64,000 nucleotides of DNA from assembly GCA_000002445.1 (NCBI GenBank), contig CM000208.1:1376001-1440000 (forward strand). Reading direction: 5' to 3'. Below the pieces are notes generated by a model that did no database searches, had not been told where the DNA came from, and saw nothing but the letters and a program-made list of their open reading frames with translations. The DNA is from Trypanosoma brucei (Eukaryota). This document shows positions 4,229-48,039 of the stretch, piece by piece. The first letter of the stretch is position 1; each line of letters starts with the position of its first letter. Made by a program: the position numbers and the translations under genes.

Positions 4229-5269
4229 ATGTTTTTGTTAGTAGGGCTGGCGAGTGACTGGTTTTCCCTACCTTACCTCAGTAAATACCCTGAAGAGAGA
4301 GAGCAAGAGGTTAGGCGAGTGGAGTAGTATGATATGGGGAGCTTAACGAAGGGTGATTATTTTACTATTATCATTGTCTGGAGAGGGGAAAAGCGGGACG
4401 CTGTACTTAACAGTGGACAGAACAGTGAAGTAGGAACATGTAGTGTAGCAGTCGTAGAATATTGAGGAGTAAGGTAATATAGTTCGGTACTGAGAAATGG
4501 AGGGAAACGGTCTCCCTTTCAAACACTTTCTTTTTTTACTTCTTCCTTGCGGTTCCGGCTCATTGAAACGTGTTCAATATGATTTGCGTAGGCGAATTAT
4601 GTGCATCTTTGTGCCGCTGTGTTCGCGTGTGGGTAGTACTTGGAAGGACGCCGTGCTGCAGTGCATCATCAGAAGTTTTGTTCACTGTCATCCCCTTCTA
4701 CTTTCTTTTTGTCATTCTCAGCGCCGAGCTTCAACCGGGAAGAGGCGTTGTGGGGCGGTGACGTATAACATTATCGTTTAGTGAGTTCCTTTTTTGGTTG
4801 TTTGCTAGTTGGAACCGAGCACTGTGGTAGTTGAGAGGTGTGATGATTACTGGAGGAACAATTGATGAGGTGTATCCGGTGCCTTAAATTCGGTGGTCTC
4901 GCATTTATGCGATAGTGTCATTCTGATATGATCGCACACCTCCACTGTTTCAGTGGTGGCACTTGACAACTTCAGCACATACCTTCAAACTTTCTTCGCT
5001 TCATACCGGAGCGAAGCTAAACCACAAACATTGGCGTTTCACCTTCTTCGTACTACACGTTGGAAGGGCTCAACGCTTCGTGTTGCCAATTCTTGAGGAT
5101 TTTGTTTCCCCTCCCGCACGATTTCCTTGCGCTGTCTAGTTCATCAAAACTCTTATTTTATTTTATTTCTTGCATGGTTGTTGCCCTTCTGTCTTGTCCA
5201 TTCCCATTCAGTAGTGTTGTAGTTTTTGTAACTCTGTGGGTGAAAGAAGGGGGGGGAGCATCACACCAA

Positions 5270-5302
5270 AACCCTCCTCTCTCTTTCTCTCTTTGCTCAG
5301 GT
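5270..5302 (+). promoter_or_regulatory. Polypyrimidine tract and AG acceptor region immediately upstream of the 5-phosphatase ATG. Candidate SL addition site.
   Basis: cctctctctttctctctttgctcag directly precedes the ATG at 5318. Confidence 0.4.
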
Positions 5303-5317
5303 TGCAGAGGAGGTGGA

Positions 5318-7012
5318 ATGAGGGCTGCCGAGGGTGATCACGTGGCGGAAGGCGCTGAGAACACTACCGCCACATCGCCCGGTCCCGGTTCAGTGCGGGA
5401 ATCGAGCAAAAGCCCAAAGTCGCGGTCGAGATGTCATTCCCCTCGAAATGGAAGAAGGGGCGACAGGAGCAAGCGCGGTTCAGTACAACATACACCTCCT
5501 AGGAATTCGGTCCGTGATCCGAGTGCCATTCCTAAGCAGTTGGACATTGATGCCATGCAGGTTGCCATTGCCACTTCCCTACCGCGCCGGCTTGACCAGT
5601 TCTGTGATGAATTCCACAGTATTCCTTTCGTTATACGTAATGAAACCTTCCCCGTGCCGGATTCTTTGAAGCGTAACTCATGGATTCCTGGGGAGGTGCT
5701 GCGAGTGGCGTACATTACCTGGAACATGGCGCACGCAAAACCAGACTTTTACAGGGTGTCAAAATATTGCATTTGTCCCAACGCCCATCTTGTGGTTGTG
5801 TGCACGCAGGAAAACGGTTGTAACTGGTACGCCAAGAAAAAACAGCAGCGACAATGGAGAGATCATATCACGCAGGCTTGCCTCAAGAATTCGTATGAAC
5901 TAGTGGGGTGCAACTCACTCTGGTACATTCACATGCTGGTCTACGCTAGAAAGCACGATGTAGCCCCCCATGTGGGGCATGTGGAAAAAGCGAAAGTGCG
6001 AACCGGAATTGGCAATGGTTTAGGCGGAAACAAAGGTGGCGTGGGCATTGCCCTGTCCATTTCAACAGAATGTAGGTTTAATGCGTTGAGTGATCCTCGC
6101 GGCCATAGAAGGGGTGCGCGGGCATCAAAACAGCAGCGCCAAGACATTTCTTGCTCTCATATGAACCCAATAGAGTGCGGTGGTGGTGATGATTCTTTAC
6201 ACAGTGCATTACCTCAGCCAGCACGTTTCACGATCTTATTTGTTGGCGCTCATCTTGCTGCCCATCAGGATGCAGTTGGTCTACGAAATAGAGACTACCG
6301 GAACATTGTCAAGATGTTGCATGTGGGACTTCGTGGGAAGTTTAAAGAGTTTCACGCAAGCATCCGGAGGAGTAGAGCTCTCGCGTGCTGCCCTCTGGAC
6401 ACCGAAAGCGCAAGGGGGTTAAACATCACGGAAGATCAGGCCACGCGCCAAAATGCTGTTTGCTCCAATGGCGGCTGTAAAGCAATGAATGGCTCAGCTG
6501 CTGTGTCTAACGAACGTGATGAAGACGATGGAGGCCCAGTTGGTATAATGAAACTTCCTTTTTGTATGAAGAATCAACCGCAAGAAGAGCGTCGAGATGC
6601 GACGGATGAGTTTGACCTTGTCTTCTTTGGAGGTGACCTGAATTACCGTCTCGACGGTACATCAAAGGCGATCCGGGATATAATTGATAATAAGAAGAAT
6701 GTTCGATCCGTACTTTGTAACAACGACCAGCTCAATCGAGAAAGAGCGAAGGGTGAAGTATTTAGGGGGTTTAAGGAGGGCAATCTCTTCTTCCGCCCAA
6801 CTTACAAGTACGAGTTGAGGAGTAGAAATTACAGTACTACTGATAAGCGCATACCGGCCTACTGTGACCGCGTTTTGTTCAAGAAGCCAGCTCAATCGTG
6901 TGTTGGAAAGGTAAGAATACGACTCTACACAGACGTCCAGGCGGTGCAAACAAGTGATCATCGCCCGGTAGTTGCAATTTTTGACGTTGCAACAATTCCA
7001 AGCAACAAATAA
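5318..7012 (+). CDS. Inositol polyphosphate 5-phosphatase (endonuclease/exonuclease/phosphatase, IPPc family).
   Basis: IPPc motifs WNMAHAKP, FVGAHLAAHQD, DLVFFGGDLNYRL, NDQLNRE, PTYKY, RIPAYCDRVLFK, SDHRPVVAIFDV. The track ORF begins at 5060, but its first 86 codons translate a pyrimidine tract, so the start is set at the ATG at 5318 (MRAAEGDH...). Confidence 0.85.
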   Translation: MRAAEGDHVAEGAENTTATSPGPGSVRESSKSPKSRSRCHSPRNGRRGDRSKRGSVQHTPPRNSVRDPSAIPKQLDIDAMQVAIATSLPRRLDQFCDEFHSIPFVIRNETFPVPDSLKRNSWIPGEVLRVAYITWNMAHAKPDFYRVSKYCICPNAHLVVVCTQENGCNWYAKKKQQRQWRDHITQACLKNSYELVGCNSLWYIHMLVYARKHDVAPHVGHVEKAKVRTGIGNGLGGNKGGVGIALSISTECRFNALSDPRGHRRGARASKQQRQDISCSHMNPIECGGGDDSLHSALPQPARFTILFVGAHLAAHQDAVGLRNRDYRNIVKMLHVGLRGKFKEFHASIRRSRALACCPLDTESARGLNITEDQATRQNAVCSNGGCKAMNGSAAVSNERDEDDGGPVGIMKLPFCMKNQPQEERRDATDEFDLVFFGGDLNYRLDGTSKAIRDIIDNKKNVRSVLCNNDQLNRERAKGEVFRGFKEGNLFFRPTYKYELRSRNYSTTDKRIPAYCDRVLFKKPAQSCVGKVRIRLYTDVQAVQTSDHRPVVAIFDVATIPSNK

Positions 7013-7812: not shown

Positions 7813-8854
7813 GCCTCCTTTTCGAAACAAAATTTGTTGTTTTTTTTTTTTGTAAAAAAGAATGGTAGAAAAAAGGGTTGTTGTGGAGCACCAAAAGGAA
7901 AGGATGTTGAGTTTGAGGAGGGGAAAAGTTTACTTTCACGTGTAGTTTGTTGATATTGCGCAGCTTCTTTCCTTTTTTCTCTACTGTTGTTTCCATTAAT
8001 TTTTTTTTTGCTTTTCGGTCTTTGTGCCTTCTGTTATAGTTGTGGAAATGGCGTGCGGTGGTGTGGGCTTCAAGGAGCGGCGTAAAATGAGGGGAAGCGA
8101 CCAATATAATAACGGGTTTAATGACGAATATTACAACGTAAAGTACGAAAGGAAAAAAAGATTGTGCGGGATGGTCGCTGAACAAACAAAGAGGGAGAAT
8201 AACGGAGAGAAAAATTTGGCATACATGCATATAAATTCTCTCGCGTGTATGTATTCATTTCATGCATATGTTCTGATTTGTTGTTATTTTTGTTTGTTGC
8301 GGAGGCGGTGAGTAAAATGTTAGGAGTCTCACAAATTTTAACGAAAAAAAAAACAAGTCATATTATGTTATGTTATGTGGCGTGATGTGAAGTAAACATT
8401 AGAGCATCGGCATCCCTCACCTTTTTTCTTCGCCAGTTTATCTTTCATCCCCATCTTTTCCTGCTCATCTCTCCTCAATACTATCTTTTCTATTCTATTT
8501 TTTAACTGATTTGCCTTCTCCATTGCAGTGGTTCGCAAAATACTTTTTTTTTTTTAAATACCTCTAGAGCACGCGTTAACACCCTCGTGTCAACTAAAAG
8601 AAGATTGAAGCGGTGCCTTTGCTCCCTTTCCGGTTTCTTTCGCTGCGCGCTGAACCTCCCAACTGGCGCTGTGACAAAATTCAGGCTGCTCGTGTTTGCT
8701 TGTGTCCCGTGGGTTCGTTTGGGAAAATAATAAACAAAACTAAACAAGGACGGCACCGAAACCCAAAAGGTTGCGAGTGGGGAGCAGTGACGTACCACAA
8801 AAGAAACAACGCCACTGTCTGGTGGATCAAGAAGGAATAAACATCAAGAAAGGC

Positions 8855-11184: not shown

Positions 11185-12747
11185 ATGAAAGCCCGGCGAC
11201 GTGGAGGGTCCCTACATGCAGAACTCCCCTTTACATATACGCTGTTCAGCACCATTGACGTCTACGGTGATGACTTACTCGATTTTACAGGAGATGACAA
11301 ACCTGAAAGACATGCTGAGGTTACGGAATTCCTGCGCAGGAGGGGATCGGGTGCATGTCGTGATGCTCCTCTTGGGCCGTCATCGTACCTTCACATGAGA
11401 GAACCCTTCAGTTACATTGCCGAAGGCTCCATCAGTGAAAACACATCCGATGCAGGCGGCAGCTTTGCCCGTGTGGAAGATGCCATGCAACACGTGTGGT
11501 TCATTTCGCAGCGTGATGGAATCAGCACTCCGTTTGCTCTCAACTTCTCGACATCTGCGCAGTTTTTAAGGTACGCGGAGAGGGAATCGTTGCAGTTTCC
11601 GACGTTAAGATGTGGATCATCCACAATGGCTTCGGAGCCCATTGCAGCACATGAAGGACCTGCTAAGTGGTTGGATATTCAAACAAAGAACAAAACTCTC
11701 GTTACGGATATTCTTTCCCACTTCCCCGTCTCGGCGGATACAGTCGAACACTGCTGCTATCCAGATGATATGGATCGTGTTATTGCACATTCCACGCTTG
11801 GATATTTCTTCTTTAACCTCATGTGTACACCCATCGCCTTAGGGGAAGTGGCACGTGGCCGCCATCAAGTGAAAAGCGTCATACAGCAGCGACTTGAAGC
11901 TGCAATGAGCGCCGGTCCGCGTTCTTCGACCCCATCGGCTGTCGCCGTTTCTGTTATAGTTTTCTTTGATTGGGTCGTAACGGTGCATGAGGAGCCCTTT
12001 CATGAGTTTGATGACTTACTGCGTTTTATACTGATTAACTGTGGTAATCGGGCGCCCGCATCAAACAACCGAAGGCTCATGCAGGTGATGACGGCCCCTT
12101 TCATATTCGCTAGTTTCTTTCAAATTGTTGTGGGACACTTATTAGACAGCGAATCGCTAACCATGATAGTGGACGAGGTCAGTGATCTTGTGTTTCTTTC
12201 CAAGAGCACAGAAGGTCACAACGAAGAGGTTGTGCAGCGTATTACCAACGCGCGCCGGTGCTTTGCCGAGTACGCCGCCGAGTTGACTAGACGTGAGTAC
12301 ATTGCTTCTGTTCTTCTACATTCGCATATGATGGATTCGTTTCTCACAAAAGACAAAGTTTGCCGTACACAAATAGAGAGCGCTCAAGCTTACCTTTATC
12401 GTATGAGTGATGAAGTTGGGGACTGTCGTGACACAGTCGCACTGACAAATTGGTACCAGAATGTGAAGGACACGTGGCACCATCTTCAGTACGGTAATAA
12501 GGCACTCCGTCAAACAGTTTTGTTTACTGAGTTGATTAACATTATGTACCCCCTCATCACACTTCAAACGCTTTTCTCCCTTAACGTGCGGATCCCTTTC
12601 GCTTACTACGAGGATCAAATGGAAAAGGATTTGAAACCGTTTTTCATTATGATGGGGATTGTGTTATTCTTTTTGTTGTTGTGTGGGCGTGCGATGTATG
12701 CTCTGTGGCACAAGAAACACTGGTCGACGCGCCTGCTGGCAACGTAG
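11185..12747 (+). CDS. CorA/Mrs2-like (MIT superfamily) membrane protein with a degenerate GMN motif (SLN). Large N-terminal soluble domain.
   Basis: The C-terminal YPLITLQTLFSLNVRIPFAYYEDQ...FFIMMGIVLFFLLLCGRAMYALWHKKHW parallels CorA/Mrs2 TM1-GMN-loop-TM2 followed by a KKxW tail. First in-frame ATG at 11185 (the track start at 11152 is TTG). Confidence 0.5.
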   Translation: MKARRRGGSLHAELPFTYTLFSTIDVYGDDLLDFTGDDKPERHAEVTEFLRRRGSGACRDAPLGPSSYLHMREPFSYIAEGSISENTSDAGGSFARVEDAMQHVWFISQRDGISTPFALNFSTSAQFLRYAERESLQFPTLRCGSSTMASEPIAAHEGPAKWLDIQTKNKTLVTDILSHFPVSADTVEHCCYPDDMDRVIAHSTLGYFFFNLMCTPIALGEVARGRHQVKSVIQQRLEAAMSAGPRSSTPSAVAVSVIVFFDWVVTVHEEPFHEFDDLLRFILINCGNRAPASNNRRLMQVMTAPFIFASFFQIVVGHLLDSESLTMIVDEVSDLVFLSKSTEGHNEEVVQRITNARRCFAEYAAELTRREYIASVLLHSHMMDSFLTKDKVCRTQIESAQAYLYRMSDEVGDCRDTVALTNWYQNVKDTWHHLQYGNKALRQTVLFTELINIMYPLITLQTLFSLNVRIPFAYYEDQMEKDLKPFFIMMGIVLFFLLLCGRAMYALWHKKHWSTRLLAT

Positions 12748-15567: not shown

Positions 15568-15981
15568 GGGTAGTATTTTTGTTAATTTTTCCTATGCTTG
15601 TTGGTGGCCTGACTGCGCCAAGTAGGGAGTTGTGGGAGCAATTTGTATGAATGGCGATGGTGTTTTTTTTTTTCCTGTAAGAGCGTGGGAAGTTAGACAA
15701 TTTGTCTTCTTTTCACCCGCTTATCTCCACCCCATTTTTCCGTTTAGGTATTGAGCGTAACGTCTGTGAAGGGACTCGGCCCACGACCTCATTATTTTCT
15801 CTTTCGCCTACGACTTTGATATTTCTTCTGTCCTGGTGATCAAACCCGCTGCAACCACGTGTAGGTTGTGGTGACAAACGTATGCAGTGTATACATAAAC
15901 ATGTACATATGTATTTTATTTATTTATTCAAAATTATATTCTTCTTAGTTTTGTTCGAAGGGTTTATTATTTGACACATTA

Positions 15982-39845: not shown

Positions 39846-41030
39846 ATGAAGGTGAATTGTTTTCTACCTTTGTTGCTGTCAGTCAGTTATTGCACTTTAG
39901 CCGACGATAGCGCGCTCACACTGAAGGCGGGGGAAAGTATCTGCAAACTGTCGAAAAGGTTGAAGTCAGTGTTCAAGTATGTAGACCGAAGAACGGATAT
40001 TGCCTTGGAAAAGATCTCCGATCTTGAGGATATGTTGGAAGTGGTGAAGTTTAAGATTGTGAAGGGAAGGTCGAATAATACGAATAGAGAGTGCAAGGAT
40101 GTCTCCGATTTTATTATGAGTAAAGCAACTTGGTTGATAAGAAAAGGGAGGAAGGAGGTTGATAGATTGAAATACGTGGGGCTTGCGGCAATTGGAAATG
40201 CGGGACTGGCGGCAGGGAGGTTAGATGAGATGGTCAATGTGTGGAGGAGGGTGTACAGTGCCGGTACTGGAAACTTTTGCATTGGGGATGAAGGGAATGA
40301 AACAAAGAGGACTGCACTTCCAGATTGCTATCTGACAGATTCGGAGAGGGATGACTTTACTGGGATTGATGAAGGGGACAGGTTAGAAGATATAAACAAT
40401 GTTACCGCTGATGCCTTTAATGAATTATTGGAGTTGCATACAGAGGATGATTTGTGGAGTAGCCCATTGACGAGTGGCATGGACGGTAAGGACTGCCGTC
40501 TAACAAATGCCAGGTCTGGCGGAGGTTACCTCGTCGGAGAGAGCCCATCTGGTAATTTGTTTTGGGGAGACGGGGTGCTTGGGGTGAAGAGGGGTAGCCG
40601 AGGGTATGACGGAAGGACGTCGAATGTAAGGAGCAAATTACTCATAAATGATGTAGTGTGGGAAGCAGACACTGTAGAGCATACCCCTATTATAAGGAAT
40701 GTACACGAAGACTTGCAAAATTTTTTTATCGACGCAGAAAAAATTGATGAATTGGTGGGGGAGACTGGGGATAAGTGGAATTGGGAGTTCTCTCATGAAA
40801 TTGGAAGTCACAGTGGTCATCCCTCAGAGTTTGATGATGAGGAGACTGACGATGTAGCGGACAACACATCGGCAGTGGAAGAGGCAGTAGGGAAGGCATT
40901 TGTGGGGTTGGGAAATAGGGAAGCGTTTCAGGAAGAGATGGTGTTGGAAGAGATGGCGTTGTGTGGAGAATGTAATATTTACACTTATTACCAGTTGTTT
41001 TTCTTAGTTTTCGTTCCTGTTTTTGTTTGA
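39846..41030 (+). CDS. Predicted surface protein. Signal peptide, helical N-terminal domain, Cys pattern, and a C-terminal hydrophobic tail (GPI-signal or TM-like). Paralog A of a tandem pair.
   Basis: MKVNCFLPLLLSVSYCTLA signal peptide. C-terminal YYQLFFLVFVPVFV. Motifs shared with the downstream paralog: CKLSKRLKSVF, AAGRLDEMVNV, GGGY, WGDGVLGV, NDVVWEA. Confidence 0.6.
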   Translation: MKVNCFLPLLLSVSYCTLADDSALTLKAGESICKLSKRLKSVFKYVDRRTDIALEKISDLEDMLEVVKFKIVKGRSNNTNRECKDVSDFIMSKATWLIRKGRKEVDRLKYVGLAAIGNAGLAAGRLDEMVNVWRRVYSAGTGNFCIGDEGNETKRTALPDCYLTDSERDDFTGIDEGDRLEDINNVTADAFNELLELHTEDDLWSSPLTSGMDGKDCRLTNARSGGGYLVGESPSGNLFWGDGVLGVKRGSRGYDGRTSNVRSKLLINDVVWEADTVEHTPIIRNVHEDLQNFFIDAEKIDELVGETGDKWNWEFSHEIGSHSGHPSEFDDEETDDVADNTSAVEEAVGKAFVGLGNREAFQEEMVLEEMALCGECNIYTYYQLFFLVFVPVFV

Positions 41031-41140
41031 ATCAGTTTCACTTGTTTTGCATCACCGTAGACCAGGTGTCTTTAACATGTGTATATCTTCGGTGGTGGTG
41101 TGTTAGCCTTCCGTGCTGATTTTTTTTTTTGATAGTAGAG

Positions 41141-42304
41141 ATGCTCAAGTTTGTTCTTGTGTTAATACTGATTATTGTTGGTGGTGACTATTGTTATCGT
41201 GGTAACGCTGGGGTGGCTTTGAAGTTGCAAGCCGTGAAGTCCGTGTGCAGAGCATCGAAAAAGCTTAAATCGGTTTTTACATTTGTGAAGGACAAACTGG
41301 AAAAAGCGGATAGAAACTTTTACGAGGTGAAACTGCTGCAAAAGCTACTCCGCTTGAAGCTTCTAACGGAATGGACTAAAGGAGAAAAGTGCGGGACAAT
41401 GAGGGTTTTTCTTACCAACATAAGGGCGAAGGAGAGAAATATGCGACGGGAACTGTCAGCCTTATGGAAAATGGGGAGGAGAGTTGTGGGTGAGGCAGGG
41501 ATTGCAGCTGGGAGACTGGACGAAATGGTGAATGTGTTCGCACAGTCGTACGGCAACGAAAGTGAAACGAAAACGTGTATTGGGGGTACAAATGGCAGTC
41601 CTATGGAGGTTTTGAAAAGGTGCTACGCTAACAATTCCAAAACAGGGGAATGGGAGTTCCTCACAATTACAGAGGGGGGAGAACTGTTTGACAACGAGTT
41701 TGAGACAAACTTGGAGACCACGCTTCACGTTATGTTGTCGCTTGGGAATAGAGCCGATCCGTGGTATGACTATGGAAAGGATATGGGGTGTCAACTCACT
41801 AAAGGAGCCCCTGGGGGTGGGTACATGAAGAGCCATAACCTCACAGAGAACATCATTTGGGGTGATGGCATACTCGGGGTGAGCAAAAATGGAAATGGAA
41901 CTACCGGCTCCAAAGGAAACACGAGAGATGGGAAATATGCTCACGATGTCGTGTGGGAAGCAGAACCCACGAAAAATAATCCCACTCTCCGCAGGGTGAT
42001 CAAAGATTTTAGTGCATTCGAAGAATTATTTGCGAAGGTGGAGTCTTCCCACAAGCTGTTAATAGATGCATTTCTCCAGGAGAAATTGTTTGCTGAGGAA
42101 TTCGAGGCTCTTGCGGTTAGAACTAAGAAGAAAAGAGTGATCATTGGCGGTTCCACCTCCACCAAAAATAAGCAGAACAATGCCTTGGGGGGTAGTGGTG
42201 CCGGCGATGATAACGAAGTGAGTATGGAAGAGTGGTTGTCGCAAGTGGATGGGGGAATTGTAGAAGAGAGGTTGTTGGCGGAGGAAATGAAGGAGTGTAC
42301 GTAA
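41141..42304 (+). CDS. Paralog B of the tandem pair. Signal peptide, helical domain and the same motif set, but no C-terminal hydrophobic anchor. It may be secreted or a decaying copy.
   Basis: MLKFVLVLILIIVGG signal peptide. CRASKKLKSVF, AAGRLDEMVNV, GGGY, WGDGILGV, HDVVWEA. Ends in EEMKECT. The track start at 41129 is TTG. ATG at 41141. Confidence 0.6.
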   Translation: MLKFVLVLILIIVGGDYCYRGNAGVALKLQAVKSVCRASKKLKSVFTFVKDKLEKADRNFYEVKLLQKLLRLKLLTEWTKGEKCGTMRVFLTNIRAKERNMRRELSALWKMGRRVVGEAGIAAGRLDEMVNVFAQSYGNESETKTCIGGTNGSPMEVLKRCYANNSKTGEWEFLTITEGGELFDNEFETNLETTLHVMLSLGNRADPWYDYGKDMGCQLTKGAPGGGYMKSHNLTENIIWGDGILGVSKNGNGTTGSKGNTRDGKYAHDVVWEAEPTKNNPTLRRVIKDFSAFEELFAKVESSHKLLIDAFLQEKLFAEEFEALAVRTKKKRVIIGGSTSTKNKQNNALGGSGAGDDNEVSMEEWLSQVDGGIVEERLLAEEMKECT

Positions 42305-43869
42305 ACTACCTTGCACAAATTGGATAAAACTGCTTACCTAATATACAAATACATGTTAATATTGGATATAGTAATGTTTCCCCACTGGATTGATATTTGG
42401 GGTTCCCTTTTTTAAATTAGTTTCTTTGTGTTAAAGTGCCTGTAACTTTGTGGAGATGTCCGCCAACGAAACTACGCTGTTGCTGTTGGTTGTTGTGAGC
42501 GTACATTCTCGTCGAAACGCTTTGAGAAAACGAATCACAAAAGAATATATGTCAGGGAGTTGGCTGCCGCCCACCAACCCTGCGACAAGGACGAATGTAT
42601 AATCCTCAGTTTTTGAAATACTGAAAACATTTGTTGCCATGACACTTCCTCATTCGACTGTTGGTCCGTAGATACATGGTAAAGTATATGATTTACTCCG
42701 TAATCCACTAAAAAATTTGGGAGGGTAATATATAAAAAGTTGTCCCTTTTTAAGATCAAAAAGTTGTTTGAGAGGTGGCGGAAGTCCGCAGTCGCCGAGG
42801 TTGGGGAAATTACACCACAGTGGGGCCCAGGGTACCAGTGGCAACTGGATAAGAGGCCTGTACAATCCAATTAAACAAGTATCGTGCATTTTCTTGTTTT
42901 GAAAATAATATTGTAACGTGGCAACCACATTAGTGAAGTAAAGTTAGTATGTTTATGCGTGCACCTCTTGTGAGAGCGGTAGAGGCGAGGTCGACGCAAC
43001 AATAGGGATCAAGTCACTGGACGCCCCCCTCAAAAAAAAAAAAAGTAAGTGATCTCTCACTTCTCAACCATTAGTGGCGCTGGAAACTTCAAACGGTTTC
43101 AAAGGCCTGACTAACCAGTAATGTTGAGGAATTCCAAGAAAAAAGGCAACGTCCTACACACGAGAATCGTCGTTGCGTGCCACATACGGCGTTTCACAAG
43201 CGCACACGTACCGAGCTATCGCATATTTTTCACACCAGTTGCATTGGACACAGTTTCATGTGAAGGGGCGACTCTCACCAAACAAAACAAAGCTGGAGAG
43301 AAACAACTCACTGCCAAATAAGTCACCACAGTCATGCCCCGGTTTACCACCCCTTTTCAGTCGCCCCTCGCCTGTCTGTGCTTTTGGATGCTCCCGCAGC
43401 ACAACAAGGTTTAACCGTACAAAACGATGTTGAATCGAGCTGTATTTCGCGATACGTCGGCAACATCCGCCAACTGGTTGAGTCTCAGTTACCTTCCGTT
43501 AACGTGCTACATGCGTTCTCCTTGTGACGGGGAAAGCAAAGGTTGACTTAGTGATACGACCAAGACGTCTGTTAGCGCCCATACCAACAACGACTAACCA
43601 GAAGAGCATTCACGTCCCACGTTGGCAAGTCGTTTAACTTCGTCCGATTACAAAGACAAGAAAAAAGTCTTTCATCCGCCTCGGCGTGGAAAGCGAGGAG
43701 GTCATCAGCATTTCAAGATTCCTAATCCTAACCTTATTAATAAACACGTTGCTCCCCAAACCACTAATTTCAAATTTACATTAGGGACGAAACTCTCGTT
43801 GGCAAACAAATCGCAATGTCTTAGCATAAAAGCAATCGCCAGACTATCGAAACGCGTACTGTTGTGTGT

Positions 43870-44675
43870 CACATTTTTATTTTCTAAAACAAAATTTTAT
43901 TGGTATTTGTGTGATAGAAGATCAACTAATGGACAAGCAGGAAATGTTGATTCTGTTATTTTCTTTACTGTTTCTTCGCAACCCAGCGGAAGCTTACATT
44001 TCGCGCTGGTATCTACGCCCGGATCGCGACCCGGATTGCACAGATTTGAAAGGCGTATCTGACGTTCTGACCATGATGCGTGATGCTGAAGTTGCCAAAT
44101 ACGCGACCAAAAATTGCACACAACTAAAGGGGGAGGACTCGCGTACAGGGAAGCAGACGGGCAACTGCACTATTTGCGTTGGTCATTACATCTGCCATTC
44201 TCTGTATAAATGTGTGAGTAAAGACTTTGTCAGGTTTTTTGGAAATGGTAGCCAGGAAGAACCCGCAAGCGAAGAAAAAAAGGACAACGAGTCGGCTCTA
44301 GATGCTGCAGACACTTCCTCCTCAGGAACTGGAACTGAGTCTCCTGAAGAAACTACTGGCGGTAGAACCAATGTTAGATCTAATGTGGAAGATGTGAATG
44401 ACGGTAAGGAGAATGTGACCTCTCCTGAAGAAGAAAGCAGGGGCGCTCCACACGGTACCGCGGTTCCCCCTCTCGAGGAAAGAAGCCCGAACCCTACTGA
44501 CAGAAACAACCTAACACGTAATCACGTCTTAACTCTATTTGCTGGAAAATTTTCAAGCAATTCTCAACTTGTGTTGAATTTAAACAATAAGATTATGCTT
44601 TCAACGTTATTTTTCTTGCTATAAAAAAGACGAGAGATAAACTAGTTTGCTAACTGAAAACAATCCAAAACCCCT
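43870..44675 (+). repeat. Tandem duplication unit 1 (about 0.8 kb). It covers the 5' flank, the small-surface-protein CDS and about 50 nt of 3' flank.
   Basis: Near-identical to 45145..45940 except for a central block of about 190 nt and a short block near the 3' end of the CDS. Confidence 0.8.
43929..44624 (+). CDS. Small Cys-containing, Ser/Thr/Glu-rich surface protein with a signal peptide and a C-terminal GPI-anchor-type hydrophobic tail (copy 1).
   Basis: MDKQEMLILLFSLLFLRNPAEA signal peptide. Four conserved Cys (NCT..NCTICVGHYICHSLYKC). N-glycosylation sequons. Acidic S/T-rich spacer. C-terminal NSQLVLNLNNKIMLSTLFFLL. ATG at 43929, set inside the track ORF that starts at 43866. Confidence 0.65.
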   Translation: MDKQEMLILLFSLLFLRNPAEAYISRWYLRPDRDPDCTDLKGVSDVLTMMRDAEVAKYATKNCTQLKGEDSRTGKQTGNCTICVGHYICHSLYKCVSKDFVRFFGNGSQEEPASEEKKDNESALDAADTSSSGTGTESPEETTGGRTNVRSNVEDVNDGKENVTSPEEESRGAPHGTAVPPLEERSPNPTDRNNLTRNHVLTLFAGKFSSNSQLVLNLNNKIMLSTLFFLL

Positions 44676-45144
44676 AACTGTATTGCCGCTGTCCACGTAC
44701 ATATATGTTCATATCACCTATGAGCACCCAGTGGGTGTGTTCCAACATATATTTCCTCCCTATTTTGCGTACCCTTTTCATTTCGCAGGCACCATAGTGC
44801 TCATAACATCATATGTTTACAGATACGCCGAAGTTACTCTACATAGAGTAAGCGTACAAAACATATAACAGAAGGGGCTGCGTAATTAGCGATACTGTTT
44901 GCCAGTTACGTAACACAACAAATACTTGCTAGGTACCCACCTTGGACAGAGGCACGGGTGGAGTCGTGGACAATGTGTTGTGTGCTGCCGTTATCGATCA
45001 GTTGTGGCGAATGGTTGAACATGTACACTGTGAGTAAAGTGCCCCCTATAATACCTTTGTGAAACAGGAAAAGGTGTTTTAATGCATAGTAACCCTTATT
45101 GGTGGGTTGTAGTTGTTTCATCAAAATTTGTGTTGTTGTGTATT

Positions 45145-45940
45145 ATATTTTTATTTTCCAAAACAAAATTTTATTGGTATTAGTGTGATAGAAGATCAAC
45201 TAATGGACAAGCAGGAAATGTTGATTCTGTTATTTTCTTTACTGTTTCTTCGCAACCCAGCGGAAGCTTTCGAATCGCGTTCGTATGTAAAGCCAGATGG
45301 AGACCCGGACTGCACAAATTTGACAGGTGTTTCTCATGTTCCCTATCACAATGATATGGATGATTACGCGGAAGAAAATTGCACAAAAATAAAGACACCG
45401 TCTCATAATAAAGAGCAGACGGGCAACTGCACTCTTTGCGTTGGTCATTACATCTGTCATTCTCTGTATAAATGTGTGAGTAAAGACTTTGTCAGGTTTT
45501 TTGGAAATGGTAGCCAGGAAGAACCCGCAAGCGAAGAAAAAAAGGACAACGAGTCGGCTCTAGATGCTGCTGACACTTCCTCCTCAGGAACTGGAACTGA
45601 GTCTCCTGAAGAAACCACTGGCGGCAGAACCAATGTTAGATCTAATGTGGAAGATGTGAAGGACGGTAAGGAGAATGTGACCTCTCCTGAAGAAGAAAGC
45701 AGGGGCGCTCCACACGGTACCGCGGTTTCCCCTCTCGAGGAAAGAAGCCCGAACCCTACTGACAGAAAGAACCTACCACATGATCGCTTCCTCGCTTTAT
45801 TTACTGAACACTTTTTAAGCAATTCTCAACTTGTGTTGAATTTAAACAATAAGATTATGCTTTCAGCGTTATTTTTCTTGCTATAAAAAAACGAGAGATA
45901 AACTAGTTTGCTAACTGAAAACAATCAGAAATAGAGAGTG
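45145..45940 (+). repeat. Tandem duplication unit 2.
   Basis: See unit 1. The ATG-to-ATG offset is 1274 nt. Confidence 0.8.
45203..45886 (+). CDS. Small GPI-anchor-type surface protein, copy 2. The signal peptide, Cys core, acidic spacer and tail are identical to copy 1. The N-terminal mature segment of about 60 aa and the region before the omega site are diverged.
   Basis: Alignment of the two translations by eye. ATG at 45203 within track ORF 45113..45886. Confidence 0.65.
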   Translation: MDKQEMLILLFSLLFLRNPAEAFESRSYVKPDGDPDCTNLTGVSHVPYHNDMDDYAEENCTKIKTPSHNKEQTGNCTLCVGHYICHSLYKCVSKDFVRFFGNGSQEEPASEEKKDNESALDAADTSSSGTGTESPEETTGGRTNVRSNVEDVKDGKENVTSPEEESRGAPHGTAVSPLEERSPNPTDRKNLPHDRFLALFTEHFLSNSQLVLNLNNKIMLSALFFLL

Positions 45941-47445
45941 ATATCGTTCATACGTGTTTAATTGTATTTTTTTACCAATATTGCTGTATGTTTCTTTGAA
46001 CATTTAGTGGCTTGTAGTATTGTACGGTAGTGGAAAAGGTAGACACCTAATGGGGTTTGTACTTCTGTTGATGGTGGTGTAGTGTTGTTAAAGGATAGCG
46101 CTATTGACAGGGGATTGCGTGTAACGAGGGAATGGAAAATGTGTTTGGGACTAATGGAAGGGAAACGTAGATAACATAATGTAGTGAGGTCGCGTAATTA
46201 ATGCTCATTACGGTAGCATGGCTTCGTGGCGGGGTCTGATGGATACGCAACGGCATGCGTGGGGTGAACAGGGGCTATGTTACCCAGGCAAATACGGAGA
46301 GAAATTGTATGCCACTGCATCGTTGCGCGGTGTAGGAAGGATATTGACCACATGGGATGTTATGTTGTACGAATCTGGTTTCTCTTTTGTCCTAATCTCC
46401 TAGTTGGGGGTGGAAAGGGAATCTGCTAGAGGAAACGGGGAGAGGCATTATGTCTGCGGCGGTTTCGTTGGTCGAGGGAAATGGGTATGGATATTAGATC
46501 CGACTTGAGAGCCGCTCTTCACTACACCAGATTGCGGAGCTCTATCCGAAGGAAAAGTGCACCGGCACGGTGGGCAATTGGGTAGAGTGCTCAGAGTTGT
46601 GAGTATATGCTAGGGTGTATTTGCATATTTCCTGCTGAACCAAAGCGGGAGACAGGAATAAGCGGGGATAATGGGATGGTTTCTCGTGGTTTGTACTGCT
46701 ATGCGCGGATGTTTTGTCAGGTGTGGACGACGGGTTAACTGAGGGGCGGCGTTTCCCGAAAAGAAAAGTGCGGAGCGGATGCGACGCAGATATATTTTTA
46801 AGGCGCGTAATTGGCAGTGCGGTAAGCATACTGAGGGATATCGGAAAATAGGACAGTGAATATGCGGAGGGGAGTGAGCAATGGCAACTCCTGAAAAATG
46901 AAAGACCAAGAGGCGACGCCGGTACGACACACGAGGAAAGCACAGAAGCATTTTCGCGTTGTTGGCCATCCAGCAAGCTTTTCCTCCCATCCATACAATG
47001 CTTCCGCTGCCCCTTTCACGTACATTGGTCCCCGCAGGTGTAGTTCCTGTGGATAATTCTCTTAGGGTTAAGTTCGATTTCTCCGCGTGAAGTGGTGTAC
47101 CCCCAAAATTCCCCATTATTGTTCGTCCCACCTTTACAGTTTGCGGTTTCCTTGCAGGCCTCTTTTTCTACACATCCGTAATCAAATTTGTTTGCCGCTT
47201 CCGTGTCAATGGATGTTCATTGGGTGCCACCGCAGAAGTGGTAGGGGACTCTGGGGCGAACGCTGTTTTTGACAAGTTCCAGAGTTTTCTGATTTTGTTA
47301 CTCTTTGTTTTAGTGATTTGTCGATCCATGACCTTCTGAGGCAGCTCTACGTTAGCCCCCGTTTCATATAGTTGTTGTTGTTTTTCCAAACGCTTTGCGG
47401 GCGTTTACGCACTCCTCGACGTCCACTCCCCGTATTGTACGGCCT
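45941..47445. other. Convergent strand-switch region, a candidate Pol II transcription termination zone, between the plus-strand and minus-strand polycistronic units.
   Basis: All credible CDSs upstream are on the plus strand and all downstream are on the minus strand. Intergenic strand composition flips from T/C-rich on the plus strand to A/G-rich on the plus strand across this point. No tRNA-like structure found. Confidence 0.7.
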
Positions 47446-48039
47446 CTACGGGCAGGTCGTGGAGTCTCCAAACCCCTTTTCGTGCATTTGACACCTAAAC
47501 TTTTTCGCTTTCACAATGAAAACTTCCGGGGGAATCTCGGAAAGAGGTGGTATAACTGAGGCGGTTGTGCAGGTTCGAAGGCTTTGCCCATCTATAGCAA
47601 GGTGATTTCCAGCCGTACCGTTCATTTCATGCACCGACACTTCGCCCCAGAGAAAATAGCTCGGTTGAGCGGCATCAGCAACAACAACAAAAGAGAGGAA
47701 AAACGATCGTAGTTGCTCCACCTTCATGTTTCCCCAACCCGCGCCGCAGGCATGAGGAACGCAAGCCTGCGCTACACAACCAGTAAGGGTGACCGCCACA
47801 GTTCCCTGCACTTGATTCATTTCGAAATGCAAAATTGCGCGTCCTCCTCGCCGCCTGCAAAAAATAGGATCAACGCTCAGTTGTTTTAGTGGTGTTCTGT
47901 AATCCTGGCGCAGAAAAGTGGTGTTAAGATTTAATTCCTTCAGCCCCCAAGCATCTCGTGACTGCAAGAAAATGAAGAGAAGCATTACAACACCGACATG
48001 CCACCAGCGAACGCATGAGAATAAGACAGCGCTGGGCAT
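47446..48039 (-). CDS. Hypothetical protein with a signal-peptide-like or TM N-terminus (197 aa).
   Basis: ATG confirmed on the minus strand at 48039. MPSAVLFSCVRWWHVGVVMLLFIFLQS hydrophobic start. No family recognised. Confidence 0.4.
   Translation of the reverse strand: MPSAVLFSCVRWWHVGVVMLLFIFLQSRDAWGLKELNLNTTFLRQDYRTPLKQLSVDPIFCRRRGGRAILHFEMNQVQGTVAVTLTGCVAQACVPHACGAGWGNMKVEQLRSFFLSFVVVADAAQPSYFLWGEVSVHEMNGTAGNHLAIDGQSLRTCTTASVIPPLSEIPPEVFIVKAKKFRCQMHEKGFGDSTTCP

Follow-up and report, generated by a model that had tools for sequence, protein, structure and literature searches.

The stretch of Trypanosoma brucei TREU927 DNA analysed here (the window: 64,000 nucleotides of chromosome 10, assembly GCA_000002445.1, positions 1,376,001 to 1,440,000 of the 4,054,025-bp contig CM000208.1) contains two small surface-protein genes in tandem, whose sequences form a mosaic of nearly identical and strongly diverged blocks. 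The ORF listing gives two open reading frames (ORFs) on the plus strand (Table 1). The first, copy 1, encodes a protein of 231 residues that is 100% identical to XP_822814 (231 aa), the product of Tb927.10.5700 (ESP3); the second, copy 2, encodes one of 227 residues that is 100% identical to XP_822815 (227 aa), the product of Tb927.10.5710. Over their full length the two proteins are 80% identical, and both follow a four-part layout of signal peptide, six-cysteine head of about 83 residues, acidic stalk of 87 residues and C-terminal tail of the glycosylphosphatidylinositol (GPI) type, with a 17-residue patch just before the tail.

What is the identity of these genes? The initial annotation, made from the letters alone, had not recognised the family, and the database search it proposed leads to Fam5/ESP3. 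Both genes belong to the catalogued Fam5 of the trypanosome cell-surface phylome. They have been grouped as a related gene family found in T. brucei and T. b. gambiense only (Savage et al. 2012, PMC3378594); Tb927.10.5700 is the ESP3 of a surface-proteome study (Gadelha et al. 2015, PMC4587319) and, together with Tb927.3.600, bears the label Fam05 there (Gadelha et al. 2015 supplementary data, PMC4587319). The sequence cluster of copy 1 also includes a T. equiperdum protein named 'Enriched in surface-labeled proteome protein 3'. Fam4-7 have been described as hypothetical proteins with signal peptides, specific to T. brucei and resembling no known protein, whose tandem arrays adjoin strand-switch regions (Jackson et al. 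2013, PMC3605285), and the present pair is tandem and adjoins such a region, as expected of the family. A Pfam scan of both proteins matched no family at E ≤ 1, a sequence search of the PDB with a seven-sequence Fam5 profile gave no match at E ≤ 1, and a literature search for the whole word 'Fam5' together with Trypanosoma brucei found no dedicated study. Beyond T. brucei brucei, gambiense and equiperdum, no member was found among 5.8 billion clusters or by exhaustive HMMER search of 1.84 billion representatives; across all databases searched, the Fam5 repertoire amounts to seven clusters at 90% identity.

By DNA alignment and self-blastn the pair is a single repeat of about 806 nt, 43860-44665 against 45134-45926, and self-blastn detected no further repeats in 42300-47500. 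The 5' flank with the signal peptide (43871-43994) shows 97.6% nucleotide identity between the copies, the conserved part of the head with the stalk (44154-44504) 98.0%, and the GPI-signal tail with the 3' flank (44556-44668) 96.5%, whereas identity falls to 58.5% in the variable part of the head and to 70.6% in the patch, where 15 of 51 nt differ. As many as 81 of the 95 differences are concentrated in 210 of the 799 alignment columns (Fisher p = 1.4e-38); the block limits were set after the alignment had been inspected, and the contrast nevertheless lies far beyond chance. The mosaic claimed in the initial annotation is thus real, the divergence being confined to head and patch and not uniform along the gene, and both reading frames lie exactly at the coordinates it gave. 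The conserved flanks it described are also present, at lengths of about 69 nt (5') and 41 nt (3') in place of about 55 and 50. Its description of the mature N-termini as almost completely different went too far, since 22 of 53 aligned residues (42%) are common to heads A (copy 1) and B (copy 2), and the motifs SR.Y, PD.DPDCT, L.GVS.V and YA..NCT are kept in both. Two simpler explanations of the variable block were rejected: it is not a low-complexity or indel region, as it holds no tandem repeat, only two small indels, and two conserved cysteines along with the motifs; nor are the two N-termini unrelated domains captured from elsewhere, as all heads are homologous, A and B being 42% identical and having a six-cysteine framework in common with relatives on chromosome 3.

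The synonymous (dS) and non-synonymous (dN) divergence between the copies, computed per block by the Nei-Gojobori method, gives the mosaic a time dimension. Both measures are 0 in the signal peptide (22 codons), and in the tail (22 codons) dS is 0 and dN 0.019, corresponding to one difference. The core, composed of the conserved head part and the stalk (117 codons), has dS 0.052 and dN 0.011 (dN/dS 0.21), against dS 0.83 and dN 0.47 (dN/dS 0.56) in the variable head (49 codons). Divergence at silent sites is about 16 times greater in the head than in the core; thus, the contrast is one of age, not of selection on the protein sequence. Judged by these silent sites, the head appears to be old, and the remaining blocks appear to have been made young. 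In the patch (17 codons), dS is 0.195 and dN 0.436, with 2 synonymous and 13 non-synonymous changes; the resulting dN/dS of 2.2 was set aside as a sign of positive selection, because the changes are few and conversion has erased the patch in other subspecies.

We followed these blocks across subspecies in an alignment of seven chromosome 10 genes with 150-nt flanks, two from TREU927, two from T. b. gambiense DAL972 (locus L001) and three from T. equiperdum (locus L002). Beyond the limits of the 806-nt repeat, the first and last copies have flanks that cannot be aligned with each other (69 of 97 and 71 of 116 columns differ), whereas those of orthologues are identical, which argues for an old duplication. 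The heads group strictly by type, with A in the first and B in the last position in all three subspecies, and no exchange of heads between positions was seen among them. The A head differs among the three by no synonymous and a single non-synonymous change; the B head exists as two alleles, one in TREU927 (B1) and one in gambiense and equiperdum (B2), separated by 23 nt differences (dS 0.28, dN 0.08, dN/dS about 0.29). Background divergence between TREU927 and gambiense is 1.8% over 12.7 kb. The A and B lineages, at a dS of about 0.8-0.9, are older than the split of T. b. brucei, T. b. gambiense and T. equiperdum.

The same alignment captures the products of recombination between the copies. 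T. equiperdum carries three Fam5 copies instead of two (L002, 3459-6693), so that the copy number of the locus differs between subspecies. Its middle copy (4731-5420) combines a B-type 5' flank and head with an A-type body and 3' flank; from a point between 44197 and 44309 on, it equals the equiperdum A copy, with which it shares a private 3-nt deletion and four substitutions. The resulting layout, A - B/A - B, is the product expected of unequal crossing-over within the conserved core. The B-type patch, patch b, is complete in copy 2 of TREU927, retained only in its 3' half in copy 3 of T. equiperdum, and replaced by patch a in copy 2 of gambiense; these differences are conversion tracts of differing extent. 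In the core, copy 2 of TREU927 is 7 nt away from the A copies as against 12 nt from its own B orthologues, and the two gambiense paralogues are 17 nt apart, distances which show that homogenisation is ongoing and lineage-specific. The proposal of the initial annotation that gene conversion homogenises the scaffold is therefore well founded, both in the silent sites (head dS 0.83 against core 0.05) and in the conversion and crossover products of the three subspecies.

A second locus tells a similar story. Outside the chromosome 10 group, Tb927.3.600 was the sole protein that an exhaustive HMMER search with the head profile retrieved (E = 5.9e-4; pairwise BLASTP 1e-12). It has the same architecture; all six head cysteines align across A, B and Tb927.3.600, and the heads are thus homologous. 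Comparisons on chromosome 3 rest on the subgroup P0008-P0011 and on one locus each from T. b. gambiense (L003) and T. equiperdum (L004). In gambiense, tandem Fam5 units of about 4.0 kb occupy 7000-16700 of L003, with coding sequences (CDSs) at 8001-8708 and 12017-12715 and a third beside an assembly gap (15796-15896). In these units, a cassette of about 430 nt that shows no alignment at all encodes the signal peptide, the head and the mid region; to either side of it, the units agree at 98% over more than 1 kb. Among the chromosome 3 genes, the heads have a dS above 2 and a dN of about 0.95, the stalk and GPI signal a dS of 0.03-0.09; the array thus repeats the mosaic pattern of chromosome 10, and more strongly. 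At the same position, T. equiperdum carries just one unit, and its head is different again (L004, 8001-8693). Compared with the gambiense gene at 8001-8708, which occupies the same place relative to an upstream acetyltransferase gene, its head is saturated at silent sites and its stalk has a dS of 0.03; either these are extremely old alleles, or different units of the array have been retained. Per genome, the Fam5 copies number 2-3 on chromosome 10 and, on chromosome 3, between 1 and about 3. We also note that a minus-strand gene call of 245 aa in DAL972 (L003, 11994-12731) lies exactly over a plus-strand Fam5 CDS that is 79% identical to Tb927.3.600, and is probably annotated on the wrong strand.

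The architecture described in the initial annotation, from signal peptide through cysteine-rich head and acidic, S/T/P-rich stalk to the GPI-type tail, agrees with two published prediction pipelines, both of which class the two genes as GPI-anchored. Signal peptide, GPI anchor and N-glycosylation were rated as highly probable for Tb927.10.5700/5710 (Savage et al. 2012, PMC3378594), and Tb427.10.5700 scored 0.975 in SignalP and 0.997 for GPI (PredGPI) (Gadelha et al. 2015 supplementary file 5, PMC4587319). By the -3/-1 rule, the signal peptide is predicted to be cleaved after AEA. The variable parts of heads A and B have opposite net charges of +1 and -5. The stalk is rich in E, S, T, P, G and N, with a net charge of -13 to -14 across copies; it is biased in composition but not repetitive, as Tandem Repeats Finder (minimum score 30) detected no tandem repeats in 42300-47500. 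Each copy has six N-X-S/T sequons. In both copies the 22-residue tail reads SNSQLVLNLNNKIM LS(T/A)LFFLL; the hydrophobicity of the tail SNSQLVLNLNNKIMLSTLFFLL is only moderate, and the omega site is probably the Ser of SNS. AlphaFold2 gave an unusable model with three sequences (mean pLDDT 35); with seven Fam5 sequences it yielded a small alpha/beta head of moderate confidence (pLDDT 55-75), with helices at 43-49, 52-62 and 97-104 and strands at 64-66, 80-84 and 91-95, while the rest stayed at about 30 and the stalk was disordered. In the 5' flank of copy 1, a T-rich tract is followed by AG dinucleotides at 43916-17 and 43919-20, which may be the trans-splice acceptor.

Table 1. Features of the Fam5 pair and its immediate surroundings (positions in the window).
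Feature	Position	Strand	Remarks
PAG1-like/PAG2-like genes Tb927.10.5680/5690 (Fam14)	39846-41030, 41129-42304	+	PF00913; immediately upstream of the pair
Conserved 5' flank, copy 1 (69 nt)	43860..43928	+	alignment; copies unalignable upstream of 43860
CDS copy 1, Tb927.10.5700 (ESP3, XP_822814), 231 aa	43929..44624	+	head type A; ORF and 100% match
Signal peptide MDKQEMLILLFSLLFLRNPAEA, 22 aa	43929..43994	+	no difference between copies; hydrophobic core, ends AEA
Variable head part, type A, 53 aa	43995..44153	+	Cys37 and Cys63
Conserved head part QTGNCT.CVGHYICHSLYKCVSKDFVRFFG	44154..44243	+	four Cys: 80, 83, 89, 95
Acidic S/T/P/G-rich stalk, 87 aa	44244..44504	+	net charge -14; three N-X-S/T sequons; predicted disordered
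Membrane-proximal patch, type a (NNLTRNHVLTLFAGKFS), 17 aa	44505..44555	+	absent from chromosome 3 relatives
GPI-signal-like tail SNSQLVLNLNNKIMLSTLFFLL and stop	44556..44624	+	
Conserved 3' flank, copy 1 (~41 nt)	44625..44665	+	
Unique spacer	44666..45133	+	unlike the sequence downstream of copy 2
Conserved 5' flank, copy 2	45134..45202	+	
CDS copy 2, Tb927.10.5710 (XP_822815), 227 aa	45203..45886	+	head type B (allele B1); ORF and 100% match
Signal peptide, copy 2	45203-45268	+	
Variable head part, copy 2	45269-45415	+	
Conserved head part, copy 2	45416-45505	+	
Stalk, copy 2	45506-45766	+	
Patch b, copy 2	45767-45817	+	
Tail, copy 2	45818-45886	+	
Conserved 3' flank, copy 2	45887..45926	+	
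Convergent strand-switch region, Tb927.10.5710 (+) / Tb927.10.5720 (-)	45927..46609		end of the + strand transcription unit

The pair stands at the end of a transcription unit. Minus-strand genes begin at 46.6 kb, downstream of the two Fam5 copies, and the GC skew reverses, changing sign near 47-48 kb; a convergent strand-switch region has been located between Tb927.10.5710 and 5720 (Fernandez-Moya et al. 2014). The PAG1-like and PAG2-like genes upstream are 31% identical to each other and each encode an A-type domain (PF00913) of the variant surface glycoprotein (VSG). Both of their products are enriched in the bloodstream surface proteome (Gadelha et al. 2015 supplementary data, PMC4587319), and they have been reported as a predicted heterodimer (2026 preprint). 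Together, the PAG-like and Fam5 pairs form a four-gene island of surface proteins that closes the plus-strand transcription unit. On the other side, transcripts of Tb927.10.5720 (46610-47131, minus strand) have been reported to increase upon depletion of RBP33. Just past the strand-switch region, a minus-strand ORF of 197 aa (47446-48039) with a hydrophobic N-terminus and no Pfam match has also been gene-called in gambiense and equiperdum. There are no tRNA genes in the whole window.

Where would the proteins act? Tb427.10.5700 was enriched 2842-fold in the surface-labelled fraction of bloodstream forms (Gadelha et al. 2015 supplementary table, PMC4587319) and Tb927.3.600 1165-fold in the same proteome (Gadelha et al. 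2015 supplementary data, PMC4587319). Going by this published proteomics and the predictions above, the Fam5 protein probably belongs to mammal-infective stages, as a glycoprotein anchored by GPI whose head is held away from the membrane on a long, flexible stalk. Transcripts have been quantified by qRT-PCR with primers common to both copies (Savage et al. 2012, PMC3378594). Since the sequences of the two genes are unrelated from about 41 nt past the stop codon on, their 3' untranslated regions must differ. In trypanosomes, this region is the usual site of stage regulation; with differing 3' flanks, each copy could thus be under regulation of its own.

How, then, did the mosaic arise? Most probably, repeated short-tract gene conversion and unequal crossing-over between old tandem duplicates have shaped it, sparing a head that exists in two types. 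An old tandem duplication of a T. brucei-specific Fam5 gene would have produced the two copies. Conversion and unequal crossover would then have overwritten the 5' flank and signal peptide, the conserved head part and stalk, and the tail and 3' flank, and this repeated overwriting would account for the apparent youth of those blocks (dS 0-0.05). The first two-thirds of the head would never have been overwritten in the subspecies examined, so that the deep A and B lineages persist. The patch may be a leftover of old B sequence between two conversion tracts, and we read it as such an unconverted remnant because conversion is erasing it in the other subspecies. The head, in turn, might escape conversion through selection for two heads, be it for function or in response to host immunity, through sequence divergence that blocks recombination, or through both. 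Selection would be favoured by the fact that the head is kept in all three subspecies while the patch is not, and that the sparing recurs on chromosome 3.

Several points weigh against this account or blur it. The observations are compatible both with selection for two heads and with a passive escape whereby recombination is held down by the divergence itself. With a dN/dS below 1 in the head, positive selection is not demonstrated, and the ratio is imprecise because dS is near saturation. The comparison covers only three subspecies assemblies, in which copy numbers may suffer from assembly collapse. As to the protein, GFP-tagged ESP3 was assigned to 'other' compartments, not to the flagellar pocket or cell body, and its authors allow for contamination or mislocalisation caused by the tag (Gadelha et al. 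2015, PMC4587319). Reports on expression conflict: transcripts were found to be very low and confined to tsetse salivary-gland parasites (Savage et al. 2012, PMC3378594), and Fam4-7 were summarised as bloodstream-preferential (Jackson et al. 2013, PMC3605285).

A more far-reaching proposal, which we put forward tentatively, holds that the six-cysteine head is a polymorphic cassette. Its ancient types would be kept by balancing or immune selection, while stalk, anchor and flanks would be continuously homogenised and double as homology arms for the shuffling of heads between copies and strains. Bloodstream and metacyclic forms would then have in Fam5 a small, T. brucei-specific set of antigens or receptors, each a GPI protein with its head on a stalk, that vary between strains but do not switch. 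The types to be counted are A, B1 and B2 on chromosome 10 and, on chromosome 3, at least three that are mutually unalignable in units otherwise 98% identical. If true, this would make Fam5 an antigen or receptor system that has not been described as such before.

The initial annotation had gone further in ascribing a 'hypervariable' tip to diversifying selection or segment swapping. A rival reading makes selection the main cause: immune pressure, diversifying or balancing, would have driven the exposed head residues of a young duplicate apart, as in true variant antigens. It would fit the restriction of divergence to the presumed membrane-distal part of the sole folded domain, the two deeply diverged subspecies alleles of the B head with their 23 nt differences, the different head types at the same chromosome 3 position in gambiense and equiperdum, and the rank of both detected Fam5 proteins among the most enriched of the bloodstream surface-labelled proteome. 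However, silent divergence equals or exceeds replacement divergence (dS 0.83 against dN 0.47 between the copies, 0.28 against 0.08 between B1 and B2), which selection at the protein level cannot cause. Moreover, the A head is invariant at silent sites across the three subspecies, with just the one non-synonymous change, and the unalignable flanks outside the repeat argue for an old duplication, not a young one. With dN/dS at 0.56 in the head and at about 0.29 between the B alleles, we consider diversification by selection unlikely, and the claim of the initial annotation on this point is unsupported.

Alternatively, whole heads might move between Fam5 copies, or in from a donor, by means of the conserved 5' and 3' arms, in the manner of VSG N-terminal domains. 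Near-identical sequence does bracket the variable block on both sides, recombination in the core did place a B head on an A body with an A 3' flank in the T. equiperdum hybrid, and the unalignable cassette of the chromosome 3 units does lie between arms of more than 1 kb that are 98% identical. Yet A is always first and B always last in the three subspecies, with no positional exchange seen, no donor A or B heads were present among all predicted proteins searched, and a single unequal crossover accounts for the one hybrid; such swapping is accordingly quite improbable as the origin of the mosaic. Least probable by our estimate is an A/B heterodimer by analogy with ESAG6/ESAG7, in which asymmetric heads on identical stalks and anchors would each supply half of a binding site: it might account for a tandem pair with two distinct, conserved heads maintained in three subspecies, for the opposite charges (+1 and -5) of the variable head parts and for the neighbouring PAG-like pair with its predicted heterodimer, but the varying copy number (three on T. 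equiperdum chromosome 10, one against at least two or three on chromosome 3) is a poor fit to a 1:1 partnership, and of the pair only Tb927.10.5700 has been reported in the bloodstream surface proteome.

We thus return to conversion and unequal crossing-over between old duplicates, and ask what this adds to existing knowledge. The genes were already annotated and catalogued, and no new element is added to the T. brucei genome. The literature on Fam5/ESP3 deals with the same genes, and their specificity to T. brucei, tandem and strand-switch setting, predicted features and detection in the surface proteome have been published (PMC3605285, PMC4587319, PMC3378594). The literature examined contains no description of the block-wise mosaic, the ancient head types, the T. 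equiperdum hybrid or the cassette array of chromosome 3. What is added is an evolutionary picture in which the stalk and anchor module evolves in concert, while a few deep types of the six-cysteine head survive and vary from one subspecies to another. The two surface-proteome hits suggest that mammal-infective stages expose the heads; should this be so, the heads are candidates for host interaction or immune recognition of a strain-specific kind. The abrupt limits of conversion would further offer a natural system for studying what limits recombination tracts in the core chromosomes of trypanosomes.

How does Fam5 compare with the known surface-protein systems of trypanosomes? The initial annotation had likened the pair to variant antigen families, and this holds only as an analogy. 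As in VSG genes, the membrane-distal part varies while the part near the membrane, with its GPI signal, is conserved, and conserved sequence flanking the variable segment could guide recombination. In contrast to the thousands of VSGs, however, there are 2-3 Fam5 copies per locus and no large silent repertoire; the pair lies outside expression sites, in a chromosome-internal unit of RNA polymerase II (Pol II), nothing points to switching, and a search of the pair for the VSG N-terminal domain (Pfam PF00913 or PF13206) gave no PF00913 match. A mucin-like or procyclin-like repeat protein was also considered and rejected, as the stalk has no tandem amino-acid repeats. The ESAG6/ESAG7 transferrin receptor and the PAG-like Fam14 are likewise tandem T. 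brucei surface paralogues that are highly similar apart from localised variable segments, but the Fam5 head is an 83-residue domain with six cysteines, unrelated to them in fold and size. Fam1, Fam10/MISP and Fam50/BARP resemble Fam5 in forming tandem arrays of similar copies at one or a few loci, with GPI signals and strain-variable copy number. In evolutionary terms, the Fam5 mosaic exemplifies a process that is familiar from the gene families of surface proteins; unlike Fam1, Fam10/MISP and Fam50/BARP, which are described as near-identical throughout, homogenisation in Fam5 stops sharply at the head.

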